Counted from the first letter of the stretch, positions 15,676-51,492 are shown. The stretch is DNA of 64,000 bases from an uncultured Gammaproteobacteria bacterium (GCA_964537315.1 CAZIAP010000001.1:121149-185148), one strand, 5' to 3'. Numbers and translations are program-made. Notes: generated by a model not told the origin, from the sequence alone.

Positions 15676-15759
15676 TGCCCGGGTGGTGGAACGGTAGACA
15701 CGCAGGACTTAAAATCCTGTATCGGTTTCGATGTGCGGGTTCGATTCCCGCCCTGGGCA
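15676..15759 (+). tRNA. tRNA-Leu (anticodon TAA), type II with long variable arm; no encoded CCA
   Basis: Acceptor gcccggg/cctgggc; anticodon arm cagga-cTTAAaa-tcctg; T-arm gcggg-ttcgatt-cccgc. A TTGTCA-N17-TATACT promoter lies upstream. Confidence 0.8.
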
Positions 15760-15766
15760 CTACGAG

Positions 15767-16990
15767 CTACCAGTCTTTTTTGTAGTATTTTTTTCCAACG
15801 AGGTTCTTAGGCATGTATTCTTGATCGACTTTTTTACCCTTTTTTCCTTGTACTGAGCTTGCCGAAGTATCTTCTTTCCACGCATAACGTACGTGATCTT
15901 TTCCGTACCCAAGATTTTTCATAACTTTGTTTGATGCATTTCTCATATGGAGCGGGATTGGGTCGAGATTTTGTGCATCAATATCGTCCATTGCAGCGAA
16001 AATACCTTCTGTTGATGCAATTGACTTTTTAGCGGTAGCTAGAAAGCTCGCTGTTTGAGCAAGGACATATATTGATTCAGGCATACCGATCATATGCACA
16101 GACTGCATACAGCTTGTTGCAACAACAAGCGCTGTTGGCTGAGCATTTCCAATATCTTCGGACGCAAAAATTACCATTCTCCTGGCAATAAATAATGGAT
16201 CTTCACCAGCTTTAATCATACGAGCAAGATAATGTAGAGTTGCGTCTGGATCATTGCCGCGCATGCTTTTGATAAATGCTGATATCGTGTCATAGTGGTA
16301 GTCTCCTTTTTTGTCATAATAGATAGATTTTCTCTGTACTGCTTGTTCTGCAACTTTTAGAGTGACTTTTTTAGAGAGTGTTGCAGCAAGCTCGATCGCG
16401 TTGATCAATGATCGTGCGTCGCCATTGGTTGCGTGAATAATATGTTCTATAGCATCTTTGTCCCAGGTATGTTTAGGAAATTCATTTATAGCGAGTTGTA
16501 CAATTTGTTTTAAATTGTCATCGCTGAGTGCATGAAGCACAAATACTTGTGCACGGGAAATTAATGGAGCATTTACTCGAAACCCGGGATTTTCAGTAGT
16601 GGCACCAATAAGTATTATTGTGCCGTCTTCAACGTGAGGTAAAAAAGCATCTTGTTGTGATTTATTAAAACGATGTATCTCATCAACAAATAAGATGGTT
16701 GCAATGTTTTTTTCTTCTTTTATTTTTTTTGCCTCTTTTATTACCTGCCTGACTTGCTCGACTCCACTTGTCACAGCTGAAAAAAAAGTAAAGTGGTCAT
16801 TAACACTATTTGCGATCACATGAGCCAGGGTTGTTTTTCCGCTTCCTGGAGGTCCCCATAATATCATTGATGACACTTTTCCTGACTCAAGCATTCTGCG
16901 AATAGGTCGTCCTTTTCCGGTTAAATGTTCCTGACCGATATATGAATCTAGTGTTTTAGGGCGTAATCTTTCAGCTAGTGGTATTTCCAT
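15767..16990 (-). CDS. rarA: Replication-associated recombination protein A (RarA/MgsA AAA+ ATPase)
   Basis: [23 protein letters not shown]...[13 protein letters not shown] Walker A, followed by a MgsA-type C-terminal domain. Confidence 0.85.
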
Positions 16991-17149
16991 AGAAGTGTCT
17001 ATAGTTTATGGAGATATTGTAACAGATACGCAATAGCAGGTGTGATGTATATAATCTTACAAAATTTACAATTTTTGTTTGTTACAATAATCAGGAGTTT
17101 TGGGCTCACCTCGTCGGCAGGATTCCCTGCCTCGTTGAGGTGGGGATAT

Positions 17150-17221
17150 GGGCCGGTGGCGCAACGGTAGCGCACTTCCATGGCATGGAAGGGGTTGAGA
17201 GTTCAAATCTCTTTCGGTCCA
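17150..17221 (+). tRNA. tRNA-Ala (anticodon GGC), with the G3:U70 identity pair; no encoded CCA
   Basis: D-arm gcgc-aacggta-gcgc; anticodon arm cttcc-atGGCat-ggaag; T-arm gagag-ttcaaat-ctctt; G3-T70 wobble in the acceptor stem. A leader hairpin precedes it. Confidence 0.75.
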
Positions 17222-17416
17222 CTACTTCAGAGCGATTCGATGTACATCGGATAGGTCAGGGTTCGCGACGGTATGCCAATACCTAGTCCGCTTGTTGGGA
17301 ATCCCCTTAGGTCCGCTGATCTTCATTCTTTTGATTAAATAATACTTGACATATTTCACTCCTCCGTATTAAACTATGGGACGTACCTTAACTTTTTGTG
17401 TTCTTAGTGTCAATAC

Positions 17417-17908
17417 GTGACATATAGAACGCGTCTCAGGCGGGAGAATGTCATGCTTCAGACATCTCAAGGCATAATTCGTATAGGATCTTCGGTCTTT
17501 GCAGATTATGAGTGGAGGCATGCGATGCAAGTATTTCTGAGAGAAACAAGTCCGATTCCACTTAACCATAGGAATCGGTATAGAAGATCAGAAATTAATC
17601 TTGGCAAATTCGTGCTTGCATTCCACTGGAGAACAAATACATGCTTTGCTTATATGAATGAAGCTATGTCAGATAGGCTGCCTTTGTTCGTAAGCGCAAG
17701 CGGCATAATAGAGTTACATAGATGTGACTATGTACGTGATGCGTTGGTGAAGTTTTTGGTCAAAGATGAGGTAGATCAAATTGGGTTAATGCTACCTTGT
17801 AGAGGATGGGTATGGATTAATAAAAAAGACAACCGAGAACCGTTGGATCTTTTTTGGAGTCATTTACCGACTTCTAGTCAGCTCAAAAAAGCATTTCCAG
17901 CGTTCTGA
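17417..17908 (+). CDS. Hypothetical protein (GTG start; doubtful)
   Basis: 163-aa Arg-rich ORF with a terminator at its 3' end. The start codon overlaps a TGTCA-N5-TGACA palindrome. No recognisable family, so the coding status is uncertain. Confidence 0.3.
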   Translation: MTYRTRLRRENVMLQTSQGIIRIGSSVFADYEWRHAMQVFLRETSPIPLNHRNRYRRSEINLGKFVLAFHWRTNTCFAYMNEAMSDRLPLFVSASGIIELHRCDYVRDALVKFLVKDEVDQIGLMLPCRGWVWINKKDNREPLDLFWSHLPTSSQLKKAFPAF

Positions 17909-17945
17909 AAAGTAGCATGAAATTTCATGCTGTTGGAGTCATCTA

Positions 17946-17982
17946 TGCCGTCTCAGGAGTACACCTGGGGCGGCTTTTTTTT
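17946..17982 (+). terminator. Rho-independent terminator
   Basis: gCCGtCtCAGGagtacaCCTGgGGCGGCtttttttt. Confidence 0.6.
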
Positions 17983-17993
17983 GAATATAAAAT

Positions 17994-18767
17994 TTAGTGT
18001 CCGTGTGAAAGAAGTTCAGATACGATCCACATTACCCATACACCTGCTATAACCAAAAAGCTTTCCAGATATGCAGCTTTCTTAAGTCCGTGCTCTTGAA
18101 TTCCTGGTATAAGATCAGCAAGCGCAATATAAATAAAGAAGCCCGCTGTTAATGCCAATAAATATGGAAGATACTCTTCAACATAGCTTCCAAAAATGAT
18201 TATTAAAGTAGCACCGAGCAGTGCCATGCATGCGCTTAAGATATTTACTAAGACCACACTCTTGGCTTTATAACCTTTTTTGAGTAAAATACCGAAATCT
18301 CCGATCTCTTGTGGAATTTCATGAGCTGCAACAGCTATCGTAGTTGCGATTCCCAACGGTACACTGATTAGGAATGTGGCCGCGATTACTACTCCATCAA
18401 TAAAGTTGTGAACACTATCTCCTATAATTACTAGAGCTGCGTTTTGCTTCTCTTCGTTACCCACCTCTACGTGAGAGTGATGAAACCAAGATATAAATTT
18501 ATCGAGAAGAAAGAAAGACAATACACCTGCTAAGGTTATAACCAGAATGTTTTCAAATGTATGAATCCCTGATCCCTCTAGCTGGTGTCCGGCTTCAGGT
18601 AACAATTCAAAAAATGATGTTCCCAGTAAAGTTCCTGCAGCAAATGCTGAGACTAAATGAGATATCTTGAAAGCAAACTTCTCTCTTGATACTAATATTA
18701 GTCCTCCTATTAAAGAGAAAACGCTACCAATCAATGTAAAGAAATAAATATAAATAATTACTGGCAT
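17994..18767 (-). CDS. ZIP family zinc/metal transporter (ZupT-like)
   Basis: HEIPQEIGDFGILLKKGY is the ZIP signature (HExPxExGD). About 8 TM helices. Confidence 0.85.
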   Translation of the reverse strand: MPVIIYIYFFTLIGSVFSLIGGLILVSREKFAFKISHLVSAFAAGTLLGTSFFELLPEAGHQLEGSGIHTFENILVITLAGVLSFFLLDKFISWFHHSHVEVGNEEKQNAALVIIGDSVHNFIDGVVIAATFLISVPLGIATTIAVAAHEIPQEIGDFGILLKKGYKAKSVVLVNILSACMALLGATLIIIFGSYVEEYLPYLLALTAGFFIYIALADLIPGIQEHGLKKAAYLESFLVIAGVWVMWIVSELLSHGH

Positions 18768-19210
18768 GATTTACATACTCCGAAGAACTCTAATGAATGA
18801 TTTACGATTGTGTACTGTAGCTTTTTTTCAATTGTTTTTTCATGTTGTTCTACATCCTTTTCTACCGGGACATCATCTACCCTTTTACACGATACGCACA
18901 TGATATGGTGATGATGGTCTTTATTTGCGATTTCATATCGATTTTTTCCAGCTTCAAGGTATATCTCCCTTATTATTTCATGGTTAAGTAATTTTTCGAT
19001 TTCCCGATACACTGTAGATTTATTTACTACAGTATTATTTTCTCTCATTAAAGCAATAATTTCAGGAACTGATAATGGCTGTTTTGCTGTATTCAGTATT
19101 TCAATAAGTACATCACGAGTATTGCTTGCGCGATGTCCGCATTTCTTCATTCTAATTTTAACTGTCGTTTTAATTCCCACGTCTTTTATAGTAACGCAAC
19201 TTAGTTGCAT
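18758..19210 (-). CDS. zur: Fur-family transcriptional regulator (probable Zur)
   Basis: Fur-type winged-helix N-terminus and HHHH...C..C metal-site motifs (DHHHHIMCVSCKRV ... VCKSCQ). Overlaps the ZIP gene by 10 nt, giving an operon. The Zur assignment is inferred from that neighbour. Confidence 0.75.
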   Translation of the reverse strand: MQLSCVTIKDVGIKTTVKIRMKKCGHRASNTRDVLIEILNTAKQPLSVPEIIALMRENNTVVNKSTVYREIEKLLNHEIIREIYLEAGKNRYEIANKDHHHHIMCVSCKRVDDVPVEKDVEQHEKTIEKKLQYTIVNHSLEFFGVCKSCQ

Positions 19211-19249
19211 TTGTCAACCCTCCAGAGGAGGGTTCTCTTTCTATAAACT

Positions 19250-19516
19250 GTGATAGTATTAATTATGTACAAGGTATATATCTTGAAAAGTATCAGTAGG
19301 CCAGAGAAGTCATATGTTGGATATACAATTAAAAGAGTTCAGGATAGGTTACAAGAGCATAATGAGGGGCTTACTCAATCGACTAAAGCATATAGACCAT
19401 GGAAATTGTTATATTATGAGACATTTTATTGTAAACTTTGTGCTGAAAAAAGAGAGAAATTGCTTAAATCAGGCATTGGATTTAGATTTCGTAAAATGAT
19501 ACTAGAGAATTTTTGA
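19250..19516 (+). CDS. GIY-YIG nuclease superfamily protein (UPF0213/YazA-like)
   Basis: YKVYILKS...SYVGYT...RLQEHN is the GIY-YIG motif. 88 aa. Confidence 0.7.
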   Translation: MIVLIMYKVYILKSISRPEKSYVGYTIKRVQDRLQEHNEGLTQSTKAYRPWKLLYYETFYCKLCAEKREKLLKSGIGFRFRKMILENF

Positions 19517-19583
19517 CAAAAGTTGGTATAATTACGTGGCAAACAGCAGAAAGTAATAAATTATACTGTTCTGCTTTGCAGAA

Positions 19584-19656
19584 CGGGGATTAGCTCAGTT
19601 GGTAGAGTGCGCGGTTTGGGACCGTGAGGCCGGAGGTTCGAGTCCTCTATCCCCGA
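19584..19656 (+). tRNA. tRNA-Pro (anticodon TGG); no encoded CCA
   Basis: cggggat acceptor; D-arm gctc-agttggta-gagt; anticodon arm cgcgg-ttTGGga-ccgtg; T-arm ggagg-ttcgagt-cctct. An extended -10 (TGgTATAAT) and a leader hairpin lie upstream. Confidence 0.8.
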
Positions 19657-19696
19657 CACGTTTGATTTCTGTAACTGATATAGTAAAATAAGGAAA

Positions 19697-29054: not shown

Positions 29055-29094
29055 CAAAAAAACAGATAAATAGACAATTAAGCCTATTTATCTG
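29055..29094 (-). terminator. Rho-independent terminator for the minus-strand stress-protein gene
   Basis: Perfect 11-bp stem CAGATAAATAG / CTATTTATCTG, followed on the minus strand by a T-run. Confidence 0.7.
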
Positions 29095-29110
29095 CTGTGT
29101 GGATTATCGT

Positions 29111-29377
29111 TTAGCGGCTTCCTCCTTTTCTACCTGCTTCAGATGCGCGTTCTGGGTCATTTTTGAAGTTTCCTCCACTTTCTGATCCACCACGGCTTCT
29201 TTCTTCAGTAGTCAGTTCGTGTGCATGTCCACTCTTCTGTGCAGCTTGTCCGCCTTTTCTACCGATCTCGCTCATATCTTGTTTAGATGAACTAGCTTGA
29301 CCGCCCTTACTACGGGCTTTCTCAGCAGTAGCTTCATCATAGTTCTCTGATGCAAATCCTCTGTTGCTATTTGCCAT
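29111..29377 (-). CDS. KGG-repeat general stress protein (YciG/con-10-like)
   Basis: Repeated RKGGQA / SKGGQAS / GRKGG segments (KGG domain). Start placed at MANSNRG because of the AGGGGGTG RBS. Confidence 0.7.
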   Translation of the reverse strand: MANSNRGFASENYDEATAEKARSKGGQASSSKQDMSEIGRKGGQAAQKSGHAHELTTEERSRGGSESGGNFKNDPERASEAGRKGGSR

Positions 29378-29544
29378 ATTTTTCACCCCCTTTAAAGTTC
29401 AAATGTTTCTGCTTATATATCAACATGGATTGATATGTTACTCAATTAGCGTAAAAGTTTAATCATAGAATTGCACGGTACTCGTAAGTAAGCAGGCAAG
29501 TTTATATCTTTTTTCTTACGAACTCAAGATATAATAAGTTTTTT

Positions 29545-30225
29545 ATGATTCCAATTTCAGATTCAGTTAAATCACTTAAGTTTCCATTATTTAATCTTGC
29601 GATTATTGCTTTAAATATTTATGTATTCTATTTAATGCTTACATCTCCAGATATTGAGGCGTTTATTAATACCTTTGCACTAATACCTGCACAAGTTAAT
29701 TTTTCTGATACAAATAGTCTAATCCCATTTGTTACATCTATTTTTTTACATGGGGGATTTTTGCATATCGCGTCAAATATGTTGTTTTTATGGGTTTTTG
29801 GCGATAACATTGAATCTCATTTCGGCAAACTATGGTATCTGATGATATTTTTTATATCCGGTATTGCAGGTGGACTTGCGCAGTATATTTTTAACCCTGA
29901 CTCTCAGATACCAATGTTAGGAGCATCAGGGGCAGTATCTGGAATCTTGGGCGCATATTATGTCTCCCATCCCCACGCAAAAATAAGATCTATCGTGTTC
30001 ATTTTCTTTTTTGTAACTATACTGAAAGTTCCAGCATCAATTTATATACTCTATTGGTTTGGTTTACAGGTATTATCAGGATTTTTATCTATTGGAGAAG
30101 GTGATGTTGGCGGAATTGCGTTTTGGGCACATGTCGGTGGATTTATCGCAGGAGTTGTATTGGCAAAAATTGGAAATAAAGAGTATCATGAAGGAATAAT
30201 TGAAGGTGAATTCGAGGAAGTCTAA
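29545..30225 (+). CDS. Rhomboid family intramembrane serine protease
   Basis: HGGFLHIASNMLFLWVFG and the catalytic GASGAVSG...H motifs in a 6-TM protein. Confidence 0.85.
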   Translation: MIPISDSVKSLKFPLFNLAIIALNIYVFYLMLTSPDIEAFINTFALIPAQVNFSDTNSLIPFVTSIFLHGGFLHIASNMLFLWVFGDNIESHFGKLWYLMIFFISGIAGGLAQYIFNPDSQIPMLGASGAVSGILGAYYVSHPHAKIRSIVFIFFFVTILKVPASIYILYWFGLQVLSGFLSIGEGDVGGIAFWAHVGGFIAGVVLAKIGNKEYHEGIIEGEFEEV

Positions 30226-30269
30226 ACTAGTTATTAGTTAGTGCTTTGTTTATTTTAAATTAGAGAATT

Positions 30270-30464
30270 ATGGACATTGGTAGAGTTTTAATATTTATAG
30301 GTATAACATTAATAGTTGCTGGGGTAATTTTTACATTTTTACCCAAACTTCCCGGAGATATTTATGTGAGAAGAGGAAATTTTACTTTCTTTTTCCCCAT
30401 AGTCACGTCAATTATTATCAGTATTATATTGACTATTCTTATAAATATTTTTCTTAGAAAATAG
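30270..30464 (+). CDS. DUF2905 family small membrane protein
   Basis: 64 aa: ...FLPKLPGDIYVRRGNFTFFFPIVTSIIISIILT matches the DUF2905 pattern. Confidence 0.55.
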   Translation: MDIGRVLIFIGITLIVAGVIFTFLPKLPGDIYVRRGNFTFFFPIVTSIIISIILTILINIFLRK

Positions 30465-30530
30465 CATTAAATAAGTAATAAATTTGCAGTTATTGACACG
30501 AATTTATGTACTACGTATAGTTAAAATAAG

Positions 30531-31007
30531 ATGAAATGTCGTAAATGTGAAAAAGACTTAGTTTCATCAAGTAGGCATTTAAATTGTCCCAGTTGTAGGA
30601 AAAAGTTATACAAAAATAAATGTCCATTATGTAATAGTTTAAAGCAAAGAAAATCCGCTCGTTGCATACACTGTTTAAATAAAAGCAAACAATATCCATT
30701 TTCTAATAAAAAGCATATTAATAAGAGTGGATATGTATATGTATATTACCGTTCTCATCCTTATTGTGACAAAGAAGGAAGAATTCTAGAACATAGGTTA
30801 GTAATGGAAGAAAAACTTGGTAGATATTTATTGCCTACTGAAAGCGTTCACCATAAAAATGGAATAAGAAGTGATAATCGTATTGAAAATTTAGAATTAT
30901 GGGTCAATTCGCAACCGACTGGCACTAGAGTCGAAGATGTAGTAAAATGGGCACAGGAAATCATAGATTTATATGGTGATGTTAGCTCAGTTGGCCTAGA
31001 GCGCTAG
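30531..31007 (+). CDS. HNH (HNH_3-type) endonuclease with an N-terminal Cys-rich zinc-ribbon region
   Basis: CRKCEKDL..CPSC..CPLC...CIHC, then YVYVYY...EHRLVMEEKLGR...VHHKNGIRSDNRIENLELW (the HNH_3 motif). The 3' end (30975..31007) overlaps tRNA-His. Confidence 0.7.
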   Translation: MKCRKCEKDLVSSSRHLNCPSCRKKLYKNKCPLCNSLKQRKSARCIHCLNKSKQYPFSNKKHINKSGYVYVYYRSHPYCDKEGRILEHRLVMEEKLGRYLLPTESVHHKNGIRSDNRIENLELWVNSQPTGTRVEDVVKWAQEIIDLYGDVSSVGLER

Positions 31008-31053
31008 GTTGTGGTCCTAGAGGTCGCCGGTTCGAATCCGGTACGTCACCCCA
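30975..31053 (+). tRNA. tRNA-His (anticodon GTG) with G-1 and an encoded CCA
   Basis: G(-1)gtgatgt acceptor; D-arm gctc-agttggccta-gagc; anticodon arm ctagg-ttGTGgt-cctag; T-arm gccgg-ttcgaat-ccggt; acgtcac plus C73, then CCA. Confidence 0.8.
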
Positions 31054-44618: not shown

Positions 44619-44730
44619 ACAATAAGTTTATAAGCGATATAAAAATCTACTGGAAAAAAATGGTAAGAACAAGACAAGAATAAATGCTAGATTGTACTTG
44701 TAATACTTGTTCTGGTATAGTGTTGGCATT

Positions 44731-46179
44731 ATGCAGCTGCCCGAAAAACTTGCTTTTGTTGATATTGAAACTACAGGCGGTAGATCACAATTTGACAGAA
44801 TCATTGAAATAGGAATCGTACGTGTAGAAAATAATAAAGTGGTTAAAAAATACCAATCACTTTTAAATCCAGACACATATGTCTCACCGTTTATTGAGCA
44901 ACTTACAGGAATTACTTCAAAAGAACTGGAACGAGCCCCAACGTTTTATGAAGTAAAAGACGAGATATTAGATATTTTAAAAGACTGTATTTTTGTAGCA
45001 CATAATGTGAGATTTGATTATGGTTTTTTGAAAAGTGAATACAAACGTTATTTAACTAACTTTTCATTGAAGCACTTCTGTACTGTAAAACTCTCGCGAG
45101 CTCTGTTTCCTGAACATAGGCATCATAACCTTGATGCAATAATTGATCGTTTTGGTTTTACTTGTGATAATCGCCACCGAGCCTTAGGAGATGCAGAAGT
45201 AATATGGAACTTTTACTCGCATTTGCAGAAACATACTAGCCAAGATGTTTTTTATCAAGCACTGCAAACTGCATTAAAGAGACCATCAAGGCCGGTTAAT
45301 ATTACCGAAGATATGATTGACGCATTGCCAGAGTCTCCTGGTGTTTACATTTTTCAGGATAAAGCCGGTTCACCTCTTTATATCGGTAAGAGTATTAATA
45401 TTCGTGACCGTGTTCTCTCACATTTTTCTTCTGACACAGAGTCGACAAGGGAAAGGGAAATTTCAGAGCAAACACATCACATCGAAACAATTGTCACTGC
45501 AGGTGAACTTTCTGCACTGTTTCTGGAGTCAAAGCTAATCAAAGAAATGCAACCTTTATATAACCGTAAGCTTCGTTATAAACGAAAGTTATTTGTAATT
45601 TGTAAAGCGGTGAGCGATAGCGGTTATGATACAGTGCAGATTCAGGAAATGGAAAAACTGACTATGGGTGATCTAGGCAGCATTCTAGCTATTGTTAGGT
45701 CCAAAAAGAAAGCCGTTACTCTACTCCACGATTTGGCTAAACAGCATAAACTTTGTACGAAAGTATTAGGCGTAGAACACTCCTCTAAGTCATGTTTTGC
45801 GTATAGACTGGGGTGGTGTAAAGGGGCGTGTGTAGGAAATGAGTCGCCATTAACATACAATCTTCGTATGCTCACTGCTTTTTCAGAATATAAAATAAAG
45901 AAATGGCCATTTGATGGACCTATTCTGATACATGAAGAGAATGTGTTTGATGAAAAAGCTGTTGGATATATTTTTGACTCTTGGTGTTATCTAGGAAATT
46001 GTGAAGCTAATACTGGCTGTAACGTGAGTTCTCAGTACACCTTTGACCACGATATGTACAAGATCTTAGTGCAATTTTTAAAAAATCCTAAGAACTATAA
46101 AAAAATTAAAAAGATTTCTGATATTTCATTACCTGTATCTATTCCACAAGCATCTTTAACAGAAACTATAAAAATCTAG
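44731..46179 (+). CDS. DnaQ-like 3'-5' exonuclease fused to a UvrC-like GIY-YIG nuclease domain (Cho/UvrC-homolog-type)
   Basis: Exo motifs FVDIETTG, VAHNVRFDYGFL and HRALGDAEV, then GIY-YIG (PGVYIFQDKAGSPLYIGKSINIRDRVLSHF) and a UvrC-like central region. Start placed at MQLPEKLAFVDIETTG. Confidence 0.7.
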   Translation: MQLPEKLAFVDIETTGGRSQFDRIIEIGIVRVENNKVVKKYQSLLNPDTYVSPFIEQLTGITSKELERAPTFYEVKDEILDILKDCIFVAHNVRFDYGFLKSEYKRYLTNFSLKHFCTVKLSRALFPEHRHHNLDAIIDRFGFTCDNRHRALGDAEVIWNFYSHLQKHTSQDVFYQALQTALKRPSRPVNITEDMIDALPESPGVYIFQDKAGSPLYIGKSINIRDRVLSHFSSDTESTREREISEQTHHIETIVTAGELSALFLESKLIKEMQPLYNRKLRYKRKLFVICKAVSDSGYDTVQIQEMEKLTMGDLGSILAIVRSKKKAVTLLHDLAKQHKLCTKVLGVEHSSKSCFAYRLGWCKGACVGNESPLTYNLRMLTAFSEYKIKKWPFDGPILIHEENVFDEKAVGYIFDSWCYLGNCEANTGCNVSSQYTFDHDMYKILVQFLKNPKNYKKIKKISDISLPVSIPQASLTETIKI

Positions 46180-46397
46180 ACTTGTCTCATAATAAATTTG
46201 AGTGTTTATGATCTGGTAGTTTCTATTAATATTCGGTTTACTTTCAAGTAATTTTCTACTATATTTATATCACTTATGTTAGTCCCTGCCCTTAAAAAAA
46301 TAGTACGCATGTATGCATACTGGATACTGAGTTAATTTATCAATCATTGTTTATTACAGAGGTCTGTACTCTGTAATATTACTGTTCATTATCTGAT

Positions 46398-46658
46398 ATG
46401 AATACAAAAGTAAATGAAAAAATAAAAGTAGTTACGCTTTTTGATCCTTATGCTCATGTAAATAAACCTCTCCTTTTAAAATGGAACTCAAGAATATATA
46501 AAATTACAAAACTTGGTTTCCATCACAAATATAAGCAAGGCAGGACACTTATACATATTTTTTCAGTGACAGACGGCTCTACTTTTTTTCGTATTAAATT
46601 TGATACAGACACTCTAGATTGGGTATTGGAGGAAATATACGATGGAACTTCCCATTAA
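46398..46658 (+). CDS. Small protein overlapping the polymerase start; candidate YolD-like accessory protein
   Basis: 86-aa ORF with a 17-nt overlap onto the Y-family polymerase gene, the position YolD/UmuD-like partners occupy in Gram-positive-type operons. Assignment is by position only. Confidence 0.3.
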   Translation: MNTKVNEKIKVVTLFDPYAHVNKPLLLKWNSRIYKITKLGFHHKYKQGRTLIHIFSVTDGSTFFRIKFDTDTLDWVLEEIYDGTSH

Positions 46659-47898
46659 CGAAGCAGAGCCAAAAGTTATGCATATTGATTTAAACTCTTG
46701 TTTTGCGACAGTGGAACAACAGGCAAATCCTTTGATACGTAATAGGCCCGTTGCAGTTGCTGCAGGTATTGCTGAAGCATGTTGTGTGATATCACCATCC
46801 TATGAAGCTAAAAGAATGGGAGTTAAGGTGGGATTTAGGGTAAGAGACGCAAAAGCGGTGTGTCCTGATATCATAATACTTCCTCCTGATCCTCCTAAGT
46901 ACCGTGCCGTGCACTTATTGTTTTCTAAAATATTTAAAAGCTACTCGCCAAACGTTGTTCCTAAATCTATAGATGAAGCAATAATTGATTTTGCAGGAAC
47001 TAAGTATTTAGAAATTGGACTGGAAAAAGTAGGAATGGAGATTAAGCACAGAATGAAGTCAGAAATAGGTGACTATATAACCTGCAATATAGGTATCGGA
47101 ACAAACAGGTTCTTAGCAAAGACAGCCGCATCGCTACATAAACCTGATGGTATGGATACTATTACACACACAAATCTTCGTGAAGTATTTGAGACATTAG
47201 AATTAATAGACCTTTGTGGAATAAATACACGATTTCAGGCACGTCTTTTTGTCGCGGGAATTTCAAATCCTATCCAATTTTTAGATACTTCAGCATTTAA
47301 ACTGAAATCAGAAGTATTTAAGAGTGTAGAAGGATACAGATGGTACATGAGACTGAGAGGCTGGGAAGTAGATAATGTTGAATGGGGAAGAAAAACTTAT
47401 GGTCAGTCTTATGCATTGAAAGAGTTTACAAATGACATATCAATACTTGCCCCACTGCTTATGAAGCTCTGTGAAAAAATGGGAAGAAGACTCAGACGAG
47501 GAGGATATTACGCATCAGGTATACATGTTGGATGCATATATGAAAAATCCGAGTACTGGCATGAGGGAAGAAAGGTTGATAAGAAGCTATATAACACCAC
47601 AGATATATATAAAGAAGCAATCAAATTGCTGGCAAAAGCTCCTATGAAACAGACAGTTTCGCATTTAATGGTTAACTGCTACAATCTTTCTCCATTGTCT
47701 ATAATGCAGCTGGAACTGGACGATACTGAGAGACAAAAAAAATGGAGACTGAGCAGCTCTATGGATATGGTAAATGATCGTTATGGAGAGTATGTAGTTA
47801 CACCTGCCTTAATGATGGGACTAAATGACAAAGTTATAGACCGGGTTCCGTTCGGAGGTGTCAAAGAATTAGAAGATATTTATGGCAGACAAGTTTAA
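46642..47898 (+). CDS. dinB: Y-family DNA polymerase (DinB/Pol IV-like)
   Basis: MHIDLNSCFATVEQ catalytic motif, SIDEA, and the palm/finger/little-finger organisation. Confidence 0.85.
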   Translation: MELPINEAEPKVMHIDLNSCFATVEQQANPLIRNRPVAVAAGIAEACCVISPSYEAKRMGVKVGFRVRDAKAVCPDIIILPPDPPKYRAVHLLFSKIFKSYSPNVVPKSIDEAIIDFAGTKYLEIGLEKVGMEIKHRMKSEIGDYITCNIGIGTNRFLAKTAASLHKPDGMDTITHTNLREVFETLELIDLCGINTRFQARLFVAGISNPIQFLDTSAFKLKSEVFKSVEGYRWYMRLRGWEVDNVEWGRKTYGQSYALKEFTNDISILAPLLMKLCEKMGRRLRRGGYYASGIHVGCIYEKSEYWHEGRKVDKKLYNTTDIYKEAIKLLAKAPMKQTVSHLMVNCYNLSPLSIMQLELDDTERQKKWRLSSSMDMVNDRYGEYVVTPALMMGLNDKVIDRVPFGGVKELEDIYGRQV

Positions 47899-48515
47899 TC
47901 CTCTCCGGCCGCTTCAAACGGAGTGATATATATTTCTCTATTTATAGGCAGAGGTGCTTCTTGATGAGGATCCTCACCTATAACTTCTTGTAAAAATTCT
48001 TCCCGAGCTGCTTGAAATATATCAAGCTCAGTTTGAGCATAAGAGACCTTACGTGTATTTTCTTCCATAGTGAGAATTACATTGTTTTCATGAGCTTTTT
48101 GTAAAATGTCGAATCTTTCTACTAAATCTTGAGTTCCTACATAAAGTAATTCCTTGGTCACTTTAACGTTTCCGGCATTAGCACTTCTTTCTGCTTCTTC
48201 CAACGCCAGATCTTCAACAGTTTTTTCTGATTCTTTTTTTGCTTCATTAAAAAGTTTTCTAGCAGCCTCAAGATCTCTTTCCTGTTTTGCTTTTTCAGCT
48301 TTTGCAAGTTTTGTTTCTACTGTAGCCTGTTTAATCTCACTTAGGTGTTCTAATTCCTGAGTTAAAAATGTACTTTGTTCAAGTGGGTTTGAAGCGACTT
48401 GCGCAATAACATCTGTAACTTTTTCCTCAGGGATTTCTTTGGCAGGTCGTGAGATACCGCGCTCAGCAGCAGATTTAAATAAACTACGTAATGACATTGA
48501 TTCAATGCTTTTCAT
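47895..48515 (-). CDS. Hypothetical coiled-coil protein
   Basis: 206 aa, E/K/A-rich helical. Overlaps the polymerase stop by 4 nt (convergent). No family recognised. Confidence 0.35.
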   Translation of the reverse strand: MKSIESMSLRSLFKSAAERGISRPAKEIPEEKVTDVIAQVASNPLEQSTFLTQELEHLSEIKQATVETKLAKAEKAKQERDLEAARKLFNEAKKESEKTVEDLALEEAERSANAGNVKVTKELLYVGTQDLVERFDILQKAHENNVILTMEENTRKVSYAQTELDIFQAAREEFLQEVIGEDPHQEAPLPINREIYITPFEAAGED

Positions 48516-48622: not shown

Positions 48623-49945
48623 TCAAGAAGCAGTTTGAATTGTCTCGTCAACCTCAATTGACTCGTCGGGAGCAAATCTATCCGGATCAATCATAAACCC
48701 CTTTAGGTCTTTTCTTCCTACGATAATAGGATATTTAAGATGTGATCTGTCAACTATAGATGCATCGCTAACAACTCTCTTACCTGCGATTTCCAGAGTA
48801 AGATTCACTAGAGGTCGGTATTTTTGACCACTGGCAGATCTAATAAACACTTTCCTGTCGTTTGAGATAGGTATATTTAGTTCTCGGGCAAGAGACTCAT
48901 CAATAGATGATCTGTATGCGCCGGTATCTAGTTTTGCATCGACTACTTTTTCTTTTGATTCACCAATTACTTTAACTGACTCTACAACTCCCAGAACTTT
49001 CTTTTCAAAGTGCACTTTTGCTGCAAATGGAGCCGCAAAAAGTGATTTTGCGACCTCTACTCCTCTCTCAGGTGTAGGGATATCCATATTCTCTACTCGC
49101 TCAAGCCTGGTACGAAGTGAGGTGAGATTAGCTATCTGAATTGATAGCCCTGGTCTTGCGTTTAGCTCAAGTACCAATGGACCCTTTTTTCCGTCGAGTA
49201 CAAGATCTACTCCAACGTATCCAAGCCCTGACACCATCTGTGTTTTTGAAGCCATTAATAATAAAGAATCCCATTCGGGTATCTTGATGCCTTGTACTTT
49301 AATCTTAGTCTCAGGAATATACTGAATAACTTTATCATGCCACACACCAGAGGTAGATATCCCCGTTTTGATATCAATTCCCAAAGCAATTGCGCCCTGG
49401 TGTAGATTGGCTTTACCGCCTGACTCTTTCGTGGGAAGCCTGATCATCGCCATTACAGGTACTCCATTTAGTACTATAATTCGTATATCAGGAATTCCTA
49501 TAGCTTTAATTTTTTTAAAAAATGGATTTTCGGTTAATCTCTCTTCTATGAACGCTCTATCAGGCAAATACTGTAAAGAATATGCACCTTCTAATATATC
49601 TAAGATATGATTTTCCAAACCATCAACATCAAACTCTTGCCCGCCGACTGTTTTACCGTAATTTCCATCCCAGTTTTTAATTGGAAGAATACCTCCTCCT
49701 CCCCAGCCTCTTGCGGGTTTTACTGCAAATCCTTGTGAAGGTAAACTTGTCCAGTCAAACGCTTTTATCTCTTCTCTAGAAGAAAACTCAGCAAAAAGCT
49801 CAGCTGTCGGTATACCATGTGCTAAAAGAAGCTTTTTTGCCTCGAGTTTATCATCAGCTACATACCGAGCTGAGGGTGGATTATAACGTCTGATGTAAAG
49901 ATAGTTCCGGGCGTTCATACCCAGAATTTTGTTGCTAACTGCCAT
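48623..49945 (-). CDS. RimK-like ATP-grasp (alpha-L-glutamate ligase-like) fused to a C-terminal retropepsin-like 'putative ATP-dependent Zn protease' domain
   Basis: ATP-grasp segments (GFAVKPARGWGGGGI ... LELNARPG) and a C-terminal LDTGAYRSSI...YPIIVGRKDLKGFMIDP (DTGA aspartyl-protease-like, DUF785-type). Start moved to MAVSNK, giving an 11-nt overlap with the upstream gene. Confidence 0.65.
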   Translation of the reverse strand: MAVSNKILGMNARNYLYIRRYNPPSARYVADDKLEAKKLLLAHGIPTAELFAEFSSREEIKAFDWTSLPSQGFAVKPARGWGGGGILPIKNWDGNYGKTVGGQEFDVDGLENHILDILEGAYSLQYLPDRAFIEERLTENPFFKKIKAIGIPDIRIIVLNGVPVMAMIRLPTKESGGKANLHQGAIALGIDIKTGISTSGVWHDKVIQYIPETKIKVQGIKIPEWDSLLLMASKTQMVSGLGYVGVDLVLDGKKGPLVLELNARPGLSIQIANLTSLRTRLERVENMDIPTPERGVEVAKSLFAAPFAAKVHFEKKVLGVVESVKVIGESKEKVVDAKLDTGAYRSSIDESLARELNIPISNDRKVFIRSASGQKYRPLVNLTLEIAGKRVVSDASIVDRSHLKYPIIVGRKDLKGFMIDPDRFAPDESIEVDETIQTAS

Positions 49946-50855
49946 GTTGTGTGATTGGAGAAAATCTAAAGTACTCGGTAAACCGCAATCCGAAGTACCT
50001 ACCAATTAAGATATTAAGCGGAATGACAATTAACATTGATTCTGGATATAAGATTACAAAGTTTCTAATTGGTTCATAAGATAGTAAAAAGTATCCTAAT
50101 ACTCCAAGTGAGACGGTAATAGCTGAGATCATTACCATGTCAGGGAATGTACGATCAATCTGAAGTTCAACTATGTTTTGGCTAAGCAAAATTAGAAGTA
50201 GTACAGGAAAAATAGATATTTGAGTAACTGCAAGTATTCCAATTTGTGCACTAATTGTAAGAGTTGCTAGAATTCCGACTGAAACAATAAAGATTGTAAG
50301 AGCCATTTTTGCAAACTGCATAATTCGAAACCTTCTGAGAATTAGTCGTGCAAGTGTCGAAGTTAGAATGATTGTCGTAAGCAATATAAGTCCTGCAGCT
50401 ATACCAGTAGCTACAAGTGTAATTGAAAGCGCGACCGGTAGTAACATAGCAAGGGATGGAACGCCTACAACATGTCTGAAAAACACTACAAAAGTAGCTA
50501 AGAGCGGGAGAAGTAAAATAAGTATAACTGTATTCGATGGCACTCCTGCTCTAACTGAGTGTTGTATGGCAAAAGCGATAAAATTGGTTACAGTAGGTTT
50601 TTCCACCGATCTTCTTTCAAAAAGCTCCTGAATTCGTTGTGCACGTTCTTCGTTGTCTTCAACTCGGGTAACGTCATCTTGACGCAAACGTTCAAGTTGG
50701 GCAATAGCTTCTGCAGAAGGTGAGGCTTCTGCCTCTTCTGTTGCTTCTTCTGTCTCCACTAATGGAGAAGTAGGTATTGTTTTTTGTGCTCTAATAGGAG
50801 CAGCAACAAAGAATAGAAACATTAAAAAAGTCGCCAAAATATATATTTTTTTCAT
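49935..50855 (-). CDS. 7TM domain protein of the 'inactive transglutaminase-fused 7TM' family
   Basis: Signal peptide (MKKIYILATFLMFLFFVAAPIRA), acidic linker, then 7 hydrophobic helices. It is the conserved upstream partner of RimK-like ATP-grasp genes. The family assignment comes from the architecture and operon context. Confidence 0.55.
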   Translation of the reverse strand: MKKIYILATFLMFLFFVAAPIRAQKTIPTSPLVETEEATEEAEASPSAEAIAQLERLRQDDVTRVEDNEERAQRIQELFERRSVEKPTVTNFIAFAIQHSVRAGVPSNTVILILLLPLLATFVVFFRHVVGVPSLAMLLPVALSITLVATGIAAGLILLTTIILTSTLARLILRRFRIMQFAKMALTIFIVSVGILATLTISAQIGILAVTQISIFPVLLLILLSQNIVELQIDRTFPDMVMISAITVSLGVLGYFLLSYEPIRNFVILYPESMLIVIPLNILIGRYFGLRFTEYFRFSPITQHGS

Positions 50856-51253: not shown

Positions 51254-51326
51254 TGAGCGACCAGGGACTCGAACCCTGAACCGATTCCTTAAGAGGGAAT
51301 TGCTCTACCGATTGAGCTAGTCGCCC
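51254..51326 (-). tRNA. tRNA-Lys (anticodon CTT); no encoded CCA
   Basis: Reverse complement: gggcgac-ta-gctc-aatcggta-gagc-a-attcc-ctCTTaa-ggaat-cggtt-caggg-ttcgagt-ccctg-gtcgctc-a. Confidence 0.8.
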
Positions 51327-51384
51327 TGCATGTGGAAAGACAACTAACGTTTTCTTTCCATCTTTCTTTCCTTTATTGTATCGC
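51327..51384 (-). promoter_or_regulatory. Conserved tRNA promoter/leader module preceding tRNA-Lys
   Basis: Minus strand: gcgatacaataaaggaaagaaagatGGAAAGaaaacgttagttgTCTTTCCacatgcag, then the tRNA. Same module as at tRNA-Gly and tRNA-Arg(TCT). Confidence 0.45.
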
Positions 51385-51419
51385 TTTGTAGCACATTTTC
51401 GTACCTATTTAATACTTTG

Positions 51420-51492
51420 CGCGCCCAGCAAGAGTCGAACTTGCAACCGTTGGTTCCGAAGACCAATGCTCTATCCATTAAGCTATGGGCGC
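51420..51492 (-). tRNA. tRNA-Arg (anticodon TCG); no encoded CCA
   Basis: Reverse complement: gcgccca-ta-gctt-aatggata-gagc-a-ttggt-ctTCGga-accaa-cggtt-gcaag-ttcgact-cttgc-tgggcgc-g. Confidence 0.8.

Follow-up and report, generated by a model that had tools for sequence, protein, structure and literature searches.

A probable standalone ImuB-C gene overlapping a Y-family polymerase gene in a bacterium of the candidate phyla radiation

We analyzed a 64,000-nucleotide (nt) stretch of DNA deposited as an uncultured Gammaproteobacteria bacterium (GCA_964537315.1, CAZIAP010000001.1:121149-185148), referred to here as the window, in which a small open reading frame (ORF) of 86 amino acids (46398..46658, + strand) precedes and overlaps by 17 nt (ATGGAACTTCCCATTAA) a gene for a Y-family DNA polymerase of 418 amino acids (46642..47898, +). 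All coordinates are those of the whole window, and L001 to L022 denote related or comparison loci. The two genes probably constitute an operon for translesion synthesis, of the "imuB-C - polY" type that is already known, with the small protein a likely member, in a bacterium of the candidate phyla radiation (CPR; Patescibacteria), of the standalone ImuB-C (GSU0042-like, DUF6504-related) family. Such an operon is not a new kind of system: the type has been known since 2013, and the lexA/SRAP-imuB-C-polY module was described in 2013, 2019, and 2026. A first-pass annotation, made from the sequence alone, had grouped the pair with an upstream exonuclease::GIY-YIG gene as a damage-tolerance cassette and had called the small ORF, if real, an unrecognised polymerase cofactor. 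Its ORF coordinates proved exact when compared with the ORF map and the sequence, and its naming of the exonuclease::GIY-YIG and Y-family polymerase genes was right, as matches to RNase_T and GIY-YIG and to IMS and IMS_C confirmed.

The small ORF and its junction with the polymerase gene

The 86-amino-acid ORF is a real gene, as its homologues, its ratios of nonsynonymous to synonymous substitution (dN/dS), and a confident all-beta structural model bear out. When one genome per species was scanned, 11 loci were recovered, from Gottesmanbacteria, Parcubacteria, Microgenomates, Saccharibacteria, and other Patescibacteria, and a metagenome scan for nearer relatives recovered a single locus, at 48% identity. 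Homologues of the protein span 86 to 30% identity, and three homologues of 86 amino acids (86, 59, and 55% identity) are each encoded directly 5' of an IMS gene. An exhaustive hidden Markov model (HMM) search of 1.84 billion representative proteins returned 634 matches at an E value of ≤1e-3 and 203 at ≤1e-10, almost all of them 80 to 90 amino acids long; every named family copy that we saw in the databases is called "hypothetical protein." By the Nei-Gojobori method, dN/dS was 0.085 to 0.106 between the window and L001 and 0.008 to 0.146 for five other pairs, and the low values persisted when the overlap codons were excluded. AlphaFold2, given 114 sequences, predicted seven beta strands (pLDDT, 93.3; pTM, 0.81). 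Residues V11, P24, W29, G48, H53, and W75 are nearly invariant in the family, and R32, K35, and R49 are invariant in close homologues.

The junction of the two genes (46628..46658, +) comprises a Shine-Dalgarno sequence, GGAGGA (46628-46633), the polymerase ATG at 46642, and the TAA of the small ORF (46656-46658). The small ORF spells GGAGGA in its L-E-E codons and carries the polymerase ATG inside its D-G codons, within a C-terminal pattern that reads ...L-E-E-x-x-D-G-x-x-x-stop. By tblastn, the polymerase gene directly followed the small ORF in every related locus that reaches past the ORF's stop codon, in several CPR lineages; adjacency is unreadable in L014, where the contig stops inside the small ORF. 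The same 17-nt overlap with an embedded GGAGG was read in 12 loci (L001-L009 and L011-L013), and L010 is the exception, with a different small-ORF end and no overlap. This conserved junction is classical translational coupling, which indicates that the two proteins are made together, and it upholds the first-pass placement of the small ORF in the slot of an accessory factor coupled to the polymerase. With the ribosome-binding site and start of the polymerase gene inside its last codons, the small gene would yield its product in fixed proportion to an active Y-family polymerase, of which the small protein may be a noncatalytic subunit or a regulator.

The polymerase matched Pfam IMS (2e-35) and IMS_C (1.5e-9). 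Alignment with nine CPR orthologues located the active-site residue D16 in HIDLNSCFATVE (46681-46716, +) and D111 and E112 in SIDEA (46966-46980, +), and all three residues are kept in 10/10 orthologues. In the C-terminal region, three further elements come after the little finger. At the position of the clamp motif (47707-47721, +), the window polymerase reads QLELD, and its relatives have motifs of the QLxLF type (QLDLF, QMSLF, and QQSLF). Downstream, MDMVNDRYGEYVVTPALMMG (47761-47820, +) contains a block, D-x-(I/V)-N-(D/N)-(K/R)-(Y/F)-G-E-(Y/F)-x-(V/I)-x-P-A, that is present in 10/10 orthologues and whose likeness to the RecA-NT-like motif, as defined in PMC6511836, was judged by eye. It is followed by a conserved tail, DRVPFGGVKELEDIY (47839-47883, +), of the form DR(I/V)AFGG(V)KELEDLY, in which DR(I/V)AFG is likewise found in 10/10 orthologues. 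For RecA and the sliding clamp, the polymerase would carry the usual docking elements, of which the one for the clamp is degenerate in this genome. The first-pass description of it as "DinB-like" stood as far as the Y family is concerned (IMS and IMS_C) and not beyond, as no DinB equivalog cut-off was reached and the C terminus has the UmuC/PolY layout. The best NCBIfam matches were to PolY/DinB subfamilies, all under cut-off (PRK03103, 187 bits versus 381); the Escherichia coli-type model PRK02406 gave 157 bits versus a cut-off of 256, and the UmuC model PRK03609 gave 55 versus 431. Because Geobacter PolY shares the C-terminal layout, including the conserved block, and no DinB or UmuC cut-off was reached, we prefer to call this predicted enzyme a "Y-family PolY with UmuC-like C-terminal organisation," which on its motifs is more accurate than "DinB-like."

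A gene position 5' of and overlapping a Y-family polymerase gene is also that of UmuD- and YolD-type accessory factors, with which the first-pass annotation had compared the small ORF, and the layout that binds UmuD' in UmuC places a conserved tail after a RecA-NT-like motif (PMC6511836). On these grounds, the small protein could be structurally analogous to the small subunit of Pol V. The resemblance to UmuD'2C (Pol V) and YqjX/YolD-YqjW/UvrX extends to the order of the genes, to the polymerase C terminus with its RecA-NT-like motif and tail, and to SOS control in the window's relatives, but the small protein of the window is unrelated to theirs in sequence and predicted fold. Neither the 86-amino-acid protein nor any of the 114 family members matched YolD (PF08863), and the family has no S24 protease match or fold and no SH3 core; comparison of the family profile with UmuD, YolD, and PDB folds ended without a match. 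We regard a UmuD- or YolD-type factor as extremely improbable.

Relationship of the small protein to the ImuB-C family

The decisive comparison for the small protein came from plasmids. A tblastn search of 72,556 plasmids (7.3 Gb) with the window protein gave a single match (E value, 4e-3), to an unnamed gene of 84 amino acids on plasmid pSD of Geobacter anodireducens, which lies in a SRAP-lexA-small-polY cluster. When the 114-sequence profile was aligned with the pSD protein by hhalign, the probability was 98.3% (E value, 1.2e-14; 80 columns), and it was 98.1% to the Geobacter protein when a Pelobacter homologue was added. These results demonstrate homology to the lexA-linked small protein of Geobacter. 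In the pSD cluster (L016, CP014964.1; 2617-5480), the SRAP and polymerase genes both appear frameshifted, in two pieces each, and the polymerase is missing from the plasmid's gene table.

The ImuB-C superfamily was defined in 2013 by Aravind et al. from small GSU0042-like proteins, which were described as all-beta proteins whose C-terminal Trp is conserved and were linked to ImuB by HMM e values of 1e-4 to 1e-5; standalone members were found most often beside DinB-type polymerases, "often" with LexA and SRAP (PMC3765255). Timinskas and Venclovas reported in 2019 that lexA-imuB-C-polY of Geobacter sulfurreducens is a damage-induced operon and described a putative PolY-ImuB-C-RecA complex (PMC6511836). 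A survey of 2026 described ImuB-C as a beta-barrel with a novel fold, unlike the SH3 core of UmuD'/YqjX (PMC12926913). The 86-amino-acid protein has the hallmarks of the family (all-beta, a conserved C-terminal Trp, conserved basic residues, and no catalytic pattern), and the absence of a PDB fold relative for it agrees with the published description (PMC12926913). The idea of an "unrecognised" cofactor was therefore not sustained: the standalone ImuB-C family is known (PMC3765255, PMC6511836, PMC12926913), and its published contexts match those of the window's relatives.

The connection to ImuB itself runs through the Pfam family DUF6504, a term absent from the literature text. ImuB encoded in the imuA-imuB-dnaE2 cluster of Sinorhizobium meliloti pSymA carries IMS, IMS_C, and, weakly, DUF6504 at residues 430-500, and homologues of its C-terminal region, named "protein ImuB" by their sources, carry PF20114; the presence of DUF6504/PF20114 on a real ImuB and its homologues verified this family as the ImuB C-terminal domain. 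DUF6504 was matched by 27/114 family members at an E value of <0.1 (best, 1.2e-5) and any other family by three or fewer, and the DUF6504 matches inspected individually share one register, in the N-terminal half. An NCBIfam scan of the 114 members gave only noise. Alignment of profiles by hhalign to alphaproteobacterial ImuB-C was weak and repeatedly positive (P, 0.003-0.0009); global alignment did not reach significance and left the C-terminal half in an ambiguous register.

Two other accounts of the small protein deserve consideration at this point. Pfam DUF6504 recognises neither the window protein nor the Geobacter pSD protein, which explains why copies are named "hypothetical," and the direct profile-profile probabilities to ImuB-C are low. 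Both facts would fit a separate CPR/Geobacter small-protein family that shares the ImuB-C neighborhood and whose likeness to ImuB and DUF6504 is spurious. We consider this very unlikely, given the concentration of DUF6504 matches in a single register, the independent signals of P ~1e-3 from three different profiles, and the published HMM link of GSU0042-like proteins to ImuB (PMC3765255). The second account accepts the family and disputes the partnership: a member acting mainly alone, whether as a sensor of DNA damage or a recruiter, following Aravind's proposal, or as a polymerase brake, would not be a stoichiometric subunit. ImuB-C genes do occur without polymerases, beside Ku/ligase, SplB, or SRAP alone (PMC3765255), no polymerase lies next to the Pelobacter plasmid homologue, and conserved basic residues and a Trp with no catalytic pattern would suit such a protein. 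In the CPR clade, however, the polymerase gene is always adjacent and nearly always overlapping, with the embedded ribosome-binding site typical of co-made subunits, and the ImuB domain serves as a protein-protein interface with DnaE2 and ImuA (PMC12926913). Solitary action seems unlikely to us.

Several points count against assigning the pair to the imuB-C - polY type. The window protein has no Pfam or NCBIfam match at E values up to 10, and its link to ImuB is weak: every DUF6504 match with a displayed score falls below the gathering score and covers the N-terminal half only, and the hhalign probability to ImuB-C is just 10 to 24%. Equating the pSD protein with the GSU0042 archetype rests on genus and operon architecture. 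The polymerase of the window has QLELD where its relatives have QLxLF. There is no lexA, recA, SRAP, or LexA box in the 64-kb window to support damage induction in this organism. Physical interaction of the small protein with the polymerase is something we infer, as we do complex formation, damage induction in this genome, and the biochemical role.

The assignment to the imuB-C - polY type nonetheless agrees with the comparison of the locus with known systems. The Geobacter lexA-imuB-C-polY operon, or "GeoPolY-like" PolY-ImuB-C-RecA module, likewise has an all-beta protein of ~85 amino acids encoded directly 5' of, and overlapping, an active PolY with a clamp motif and a putative RecA-NT-like motif, and its lexA/SRAP neighbors recur in the window's relatives. 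It differs in that the window protein is only 25% identical, that the genes overlap by 17 nt in the window versus 4 nt in pSD, that the window locus has no lexA, SRAP, or LexA box, and that the CPR clade is not among the groups named in PMC6511836 (Deltaproteobacteria, Deferribacteres, Planctomycetes, and Clostridia). With ImuB, part of the mutasome ImuA-ImuB-DnaE2, the small protein shares a domain superfamily, by weak sequence signals, and an association with a Y-family fold that has a putative RecA-NT-like motif. In the window, in contrast, this domain is encoded on its own, the polymerase remains catalytically intact, and the locus showed no DnaE2 or ImuA gene. The small protein would thus be a standalone version of the beta domain that ends ImuB.

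SOS context and inverted repeats

In the window's relatives, the pair stands in a lexA/SRAP context. A lexA gene lies immediately 5', on the same strand, in L004, L005, L006, L009, and L014, and an SRAP (YedK-like) gene is divergent from the small ORF in L001, L003, L007, L008, L011-L013, and L017-L022; with L014, where SRAP is upstream of lexA, SRAP is present in 14 loci. Three loci (L003, L007, and L008) carry perfect copies of GAAC-N4-GTTC, which we take to be the Gram-positive-type LexA box, positioned at -26/-31 relative to the small ORF; in L005, L006, and L014, perfect copies stand upstream of lexA. In most relatives, the operon would be under SOS control, through lexA within the operon or LexA boxes at the promoter, with SRAP as a neighbor. 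A direct repeat, GCGAACAAA-AA-GCGAACAAAG, stands 5' of the small ORF in L017 (~1235-1262), where other CPR loci have the inverted GAAC-N4-GTTC box, and could be a variant operator.

In the window, only the polymerase gene adjoins the small ORF. No GAAC-N4-GTTC with 0 or 1 mismatch precedes the small ORF or the upstream Cho-like gene. The lineage of the window would have kept the pair without a LexA box, and this genome would in addition have done without SRAP, leaving the pair directly downstream of the Cho+Exo nuclease gene described below.

The place of the relatives' LexA box is occupied in the window by an inverted repeat. The first-pass annotation had reported TACAGA-gg-TCTGTA at 46355..46368, which is there, within a larger TACAGAG repeat. 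The larger repeat is also present, and its arms are longer than had been described: it is a perfect inverted repeat, TATTACAGAG-GTCTGTA-CTCTGTAATA, with 10-nt arms and a 7-nt spacer (46352..46378), centered 33 nt before the ATG of the small ORF. None of 100 shuffled sequences reproduced it (0/100), and it occurs once in the 64 kb. Two lineages among the relatives share TTATTAC-N8-GTAATAA together with the block CTCTGTAATAWTACTG, and a 7-nt insertion in the window extends the arms to 10 nt. The RNA is predicted to fold as a hairpin both in the window (-12.4 kcal/mol; z, -1.9) and in L001 (-6.9 kcal/mol; z, -3.4).

Two other repeats named in the first-pass annotation were present with reservations. 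The palindrome GTATGCATAC lies at 46311..46320, 2 nt from where it had been placed, within an 8-bp stem (46302-46321), and is not conserved in the relatives. On the minus strand, this stem is followed by ATTTTTTTAA, an arrangement resembling a terminator for a minus-strand transcript, and it stands at the junction where the relatives have the SRAP gene. The 8-bp inverted repeat 5' of the Cho-like gene, AGAACAAG (44666-44673) and CTTGTTCT (44706-44713) with a 32-nt spacer, is at chance level in an AT-rich spacer and is probably a product of chance; in L018, the nearest relative covering this region, it is not conserved, and only TGGTATA(G/T)T by the start codon is kept.

By the first-pass annotation's own standard, the idea that the palindromes mark a regulon failed within the window: they have no counterpart elsewhere in the 64 kb, and the one preceding the Cho-like gene is not conserved. 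A LexA box was also rejected as an identity for the palindromes, which contain no GAAC-N4-GTTC; TACAG-N4-CTGTA occurs once versus ~1.6 times expected, and GTAATATTAC-like sites are not enriched. A terminator scan flagged the hairpin with 10-nt arms, but the same place in the relatives lies between divergent genes, where no upstream gene on the same strand could use it as a terminator, and this candidate was dropped. The element may be a hairpin or an operator. Across the three lineages compared, the changed spacer length argues against a dimeric operator of fixed spacing and slightly favors a hairpin. More speculatively, the imuB-C-polY operon might have escaped LexA control in the window's lineage and be governed by the TTATTAC...GTAATAA element, as a new non-LexA operator or a 5' untranslated-region RNA element. 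We think this doubtful; if true, the element would tune an error-prone polymerase in a CPR bacterium with a reduced genome.

The upstream nuclease gene, flanking genes, and significance

The gene upstream of the pair (44731..46179, +; 482 amino acids, with a possible alternative start at a TTG at 44707) is predicted to encode a single protein that joins a DnaQ-type DEDDh 3'-5' exonuclease to a Cho-type GIY-YIG nuclease. Its product matched Pfam RNase_T (9e-34) and GIY-YIG (1e-7), and an L018 orthologue, 80% identical, has precomputed matches to RNase_T, GIY-YIG, UvrC_M, and Cho_C. The DEDDh exonuclease motifs FVDIETTG (44755-44778, +), HNVRFDYGFL (45001-45030, +), and HRALGDAE (45175-45198, +) are intact, as are the GIY-YIG motif (45340-45393, +) and the Cys-rich linker (45754-45831, +). 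This Cho+Exo architecture, a DnaQ-like exonuclease fused to a Cho-type GIY-YIG domain, has been described (PMC1564403). Like other Cho+Exo nucleases, the window protein has an ExoIII/DnaQ N-terminal domain, GIY-YIG, the Cys-rich linker, and a Cho C-terminal domain, with motifs intact; it differs in falling under the NCBIfam cut-offs for equivalogs (198 bits versus 367 for the Cho model, of whose 289 positions 26-278 were covered, and 252 bits versus 495 for PRK07883), in belonging to a CPR organism, and in its adjacency to a polY operon, which is confined to a narrow lineage. An extended -10-like box, TGGTATAGT (44713-44721), is the sole conserved block 5' of the gene between the window and L018. 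Its end lies 10 nt ahead of the ATG, which could leave the mRNA with a very short leader or with no leader at all.

The three-gene "cassette" of the first-pass annotation did not emerge as a conserved unit. A Cho-like gene is found near the polY operon only in the window's lineage (L001 and L018-L022), where SRAP and another ORF lie between them, and none occurs within 6 kb in ten other loci. The gene order in close relatives is Vut_1 - orf98 - Cho+Exo - orf57/106 - SRAP(-) - small ORF - polY - variable acidic ORF(-) - ATP-grasp. We compared window positions 46180-46400 with L001 1204-2585 and L018 4237-5630, intervals in which the intervening ORF of the relatives encodes 106 or 57 amino acids. 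The window has neither orf106 nor SRAP and keeps the flanks: 46206-46291 corresponds to L001 1662-1747, and the sequence from 46332 onward corresponds to L001 from 2539 onward. These alignments suggest either that the window's lineage lost the genes by deletion or that the other lineages gained them by insertion.

Downstream of the polymerase gene, a convergent ORF of 206 amino acids (47895..48515, -), which the first-pass annotation had labelled a coiled-coil protein, has no credible family in Pfam or NCBIfam, with one weak chance match far under cut-off. Having no family and not being conserved in the relatives, it was ruled out as a member of the unit. Its slot evolves fast: in place of this acidic ORF, the syntenic relatives L019 and L020 hold an acidic ORF of 181 amino acids that resembles it hardly at all (34% identity over 35 amino acids). 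Farther on, the window (48623-50005, -) and L019 (2661-4881) encode an ATP-grasp protein (ATPgrasp_ST/RimK-like) fused to a retropepsin/Zn-protease-like C-terminal domain; in the relatives, this gene adjoins one for a 7TM_transglut protein, a pairing that is conserved downstream of the polymerase operon. The window also contains eight tRNA genes at the Rfam gathering score, within 15677-31050 and 51254-51492, including two close pairs (19584/19877 and 51254/51420).

What this locus adds is new in modest ways: a CPR-wide clade that current domain models do not see, a deeply conserved gene junction, and one lineage that appears to have lost the lexA/SRAP context, with a local hairpin found instead. 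An unannotated ORF gains a name, and with it a CPR-wide clade of standalone ImuB-C proteins, comprising hundreds of clusters, that escapes Pfam and NCBIfam. Good, though indirect, evidence that ImuB-C is co-produced with an active Y-family polymerase as its partner comes from the conserved 17-nt overlap with its embedded ribosome-binding site, and the compact two-gene versions found in these bacteria could be convenient material for probing the biochemical role of standalone ImuB-C.

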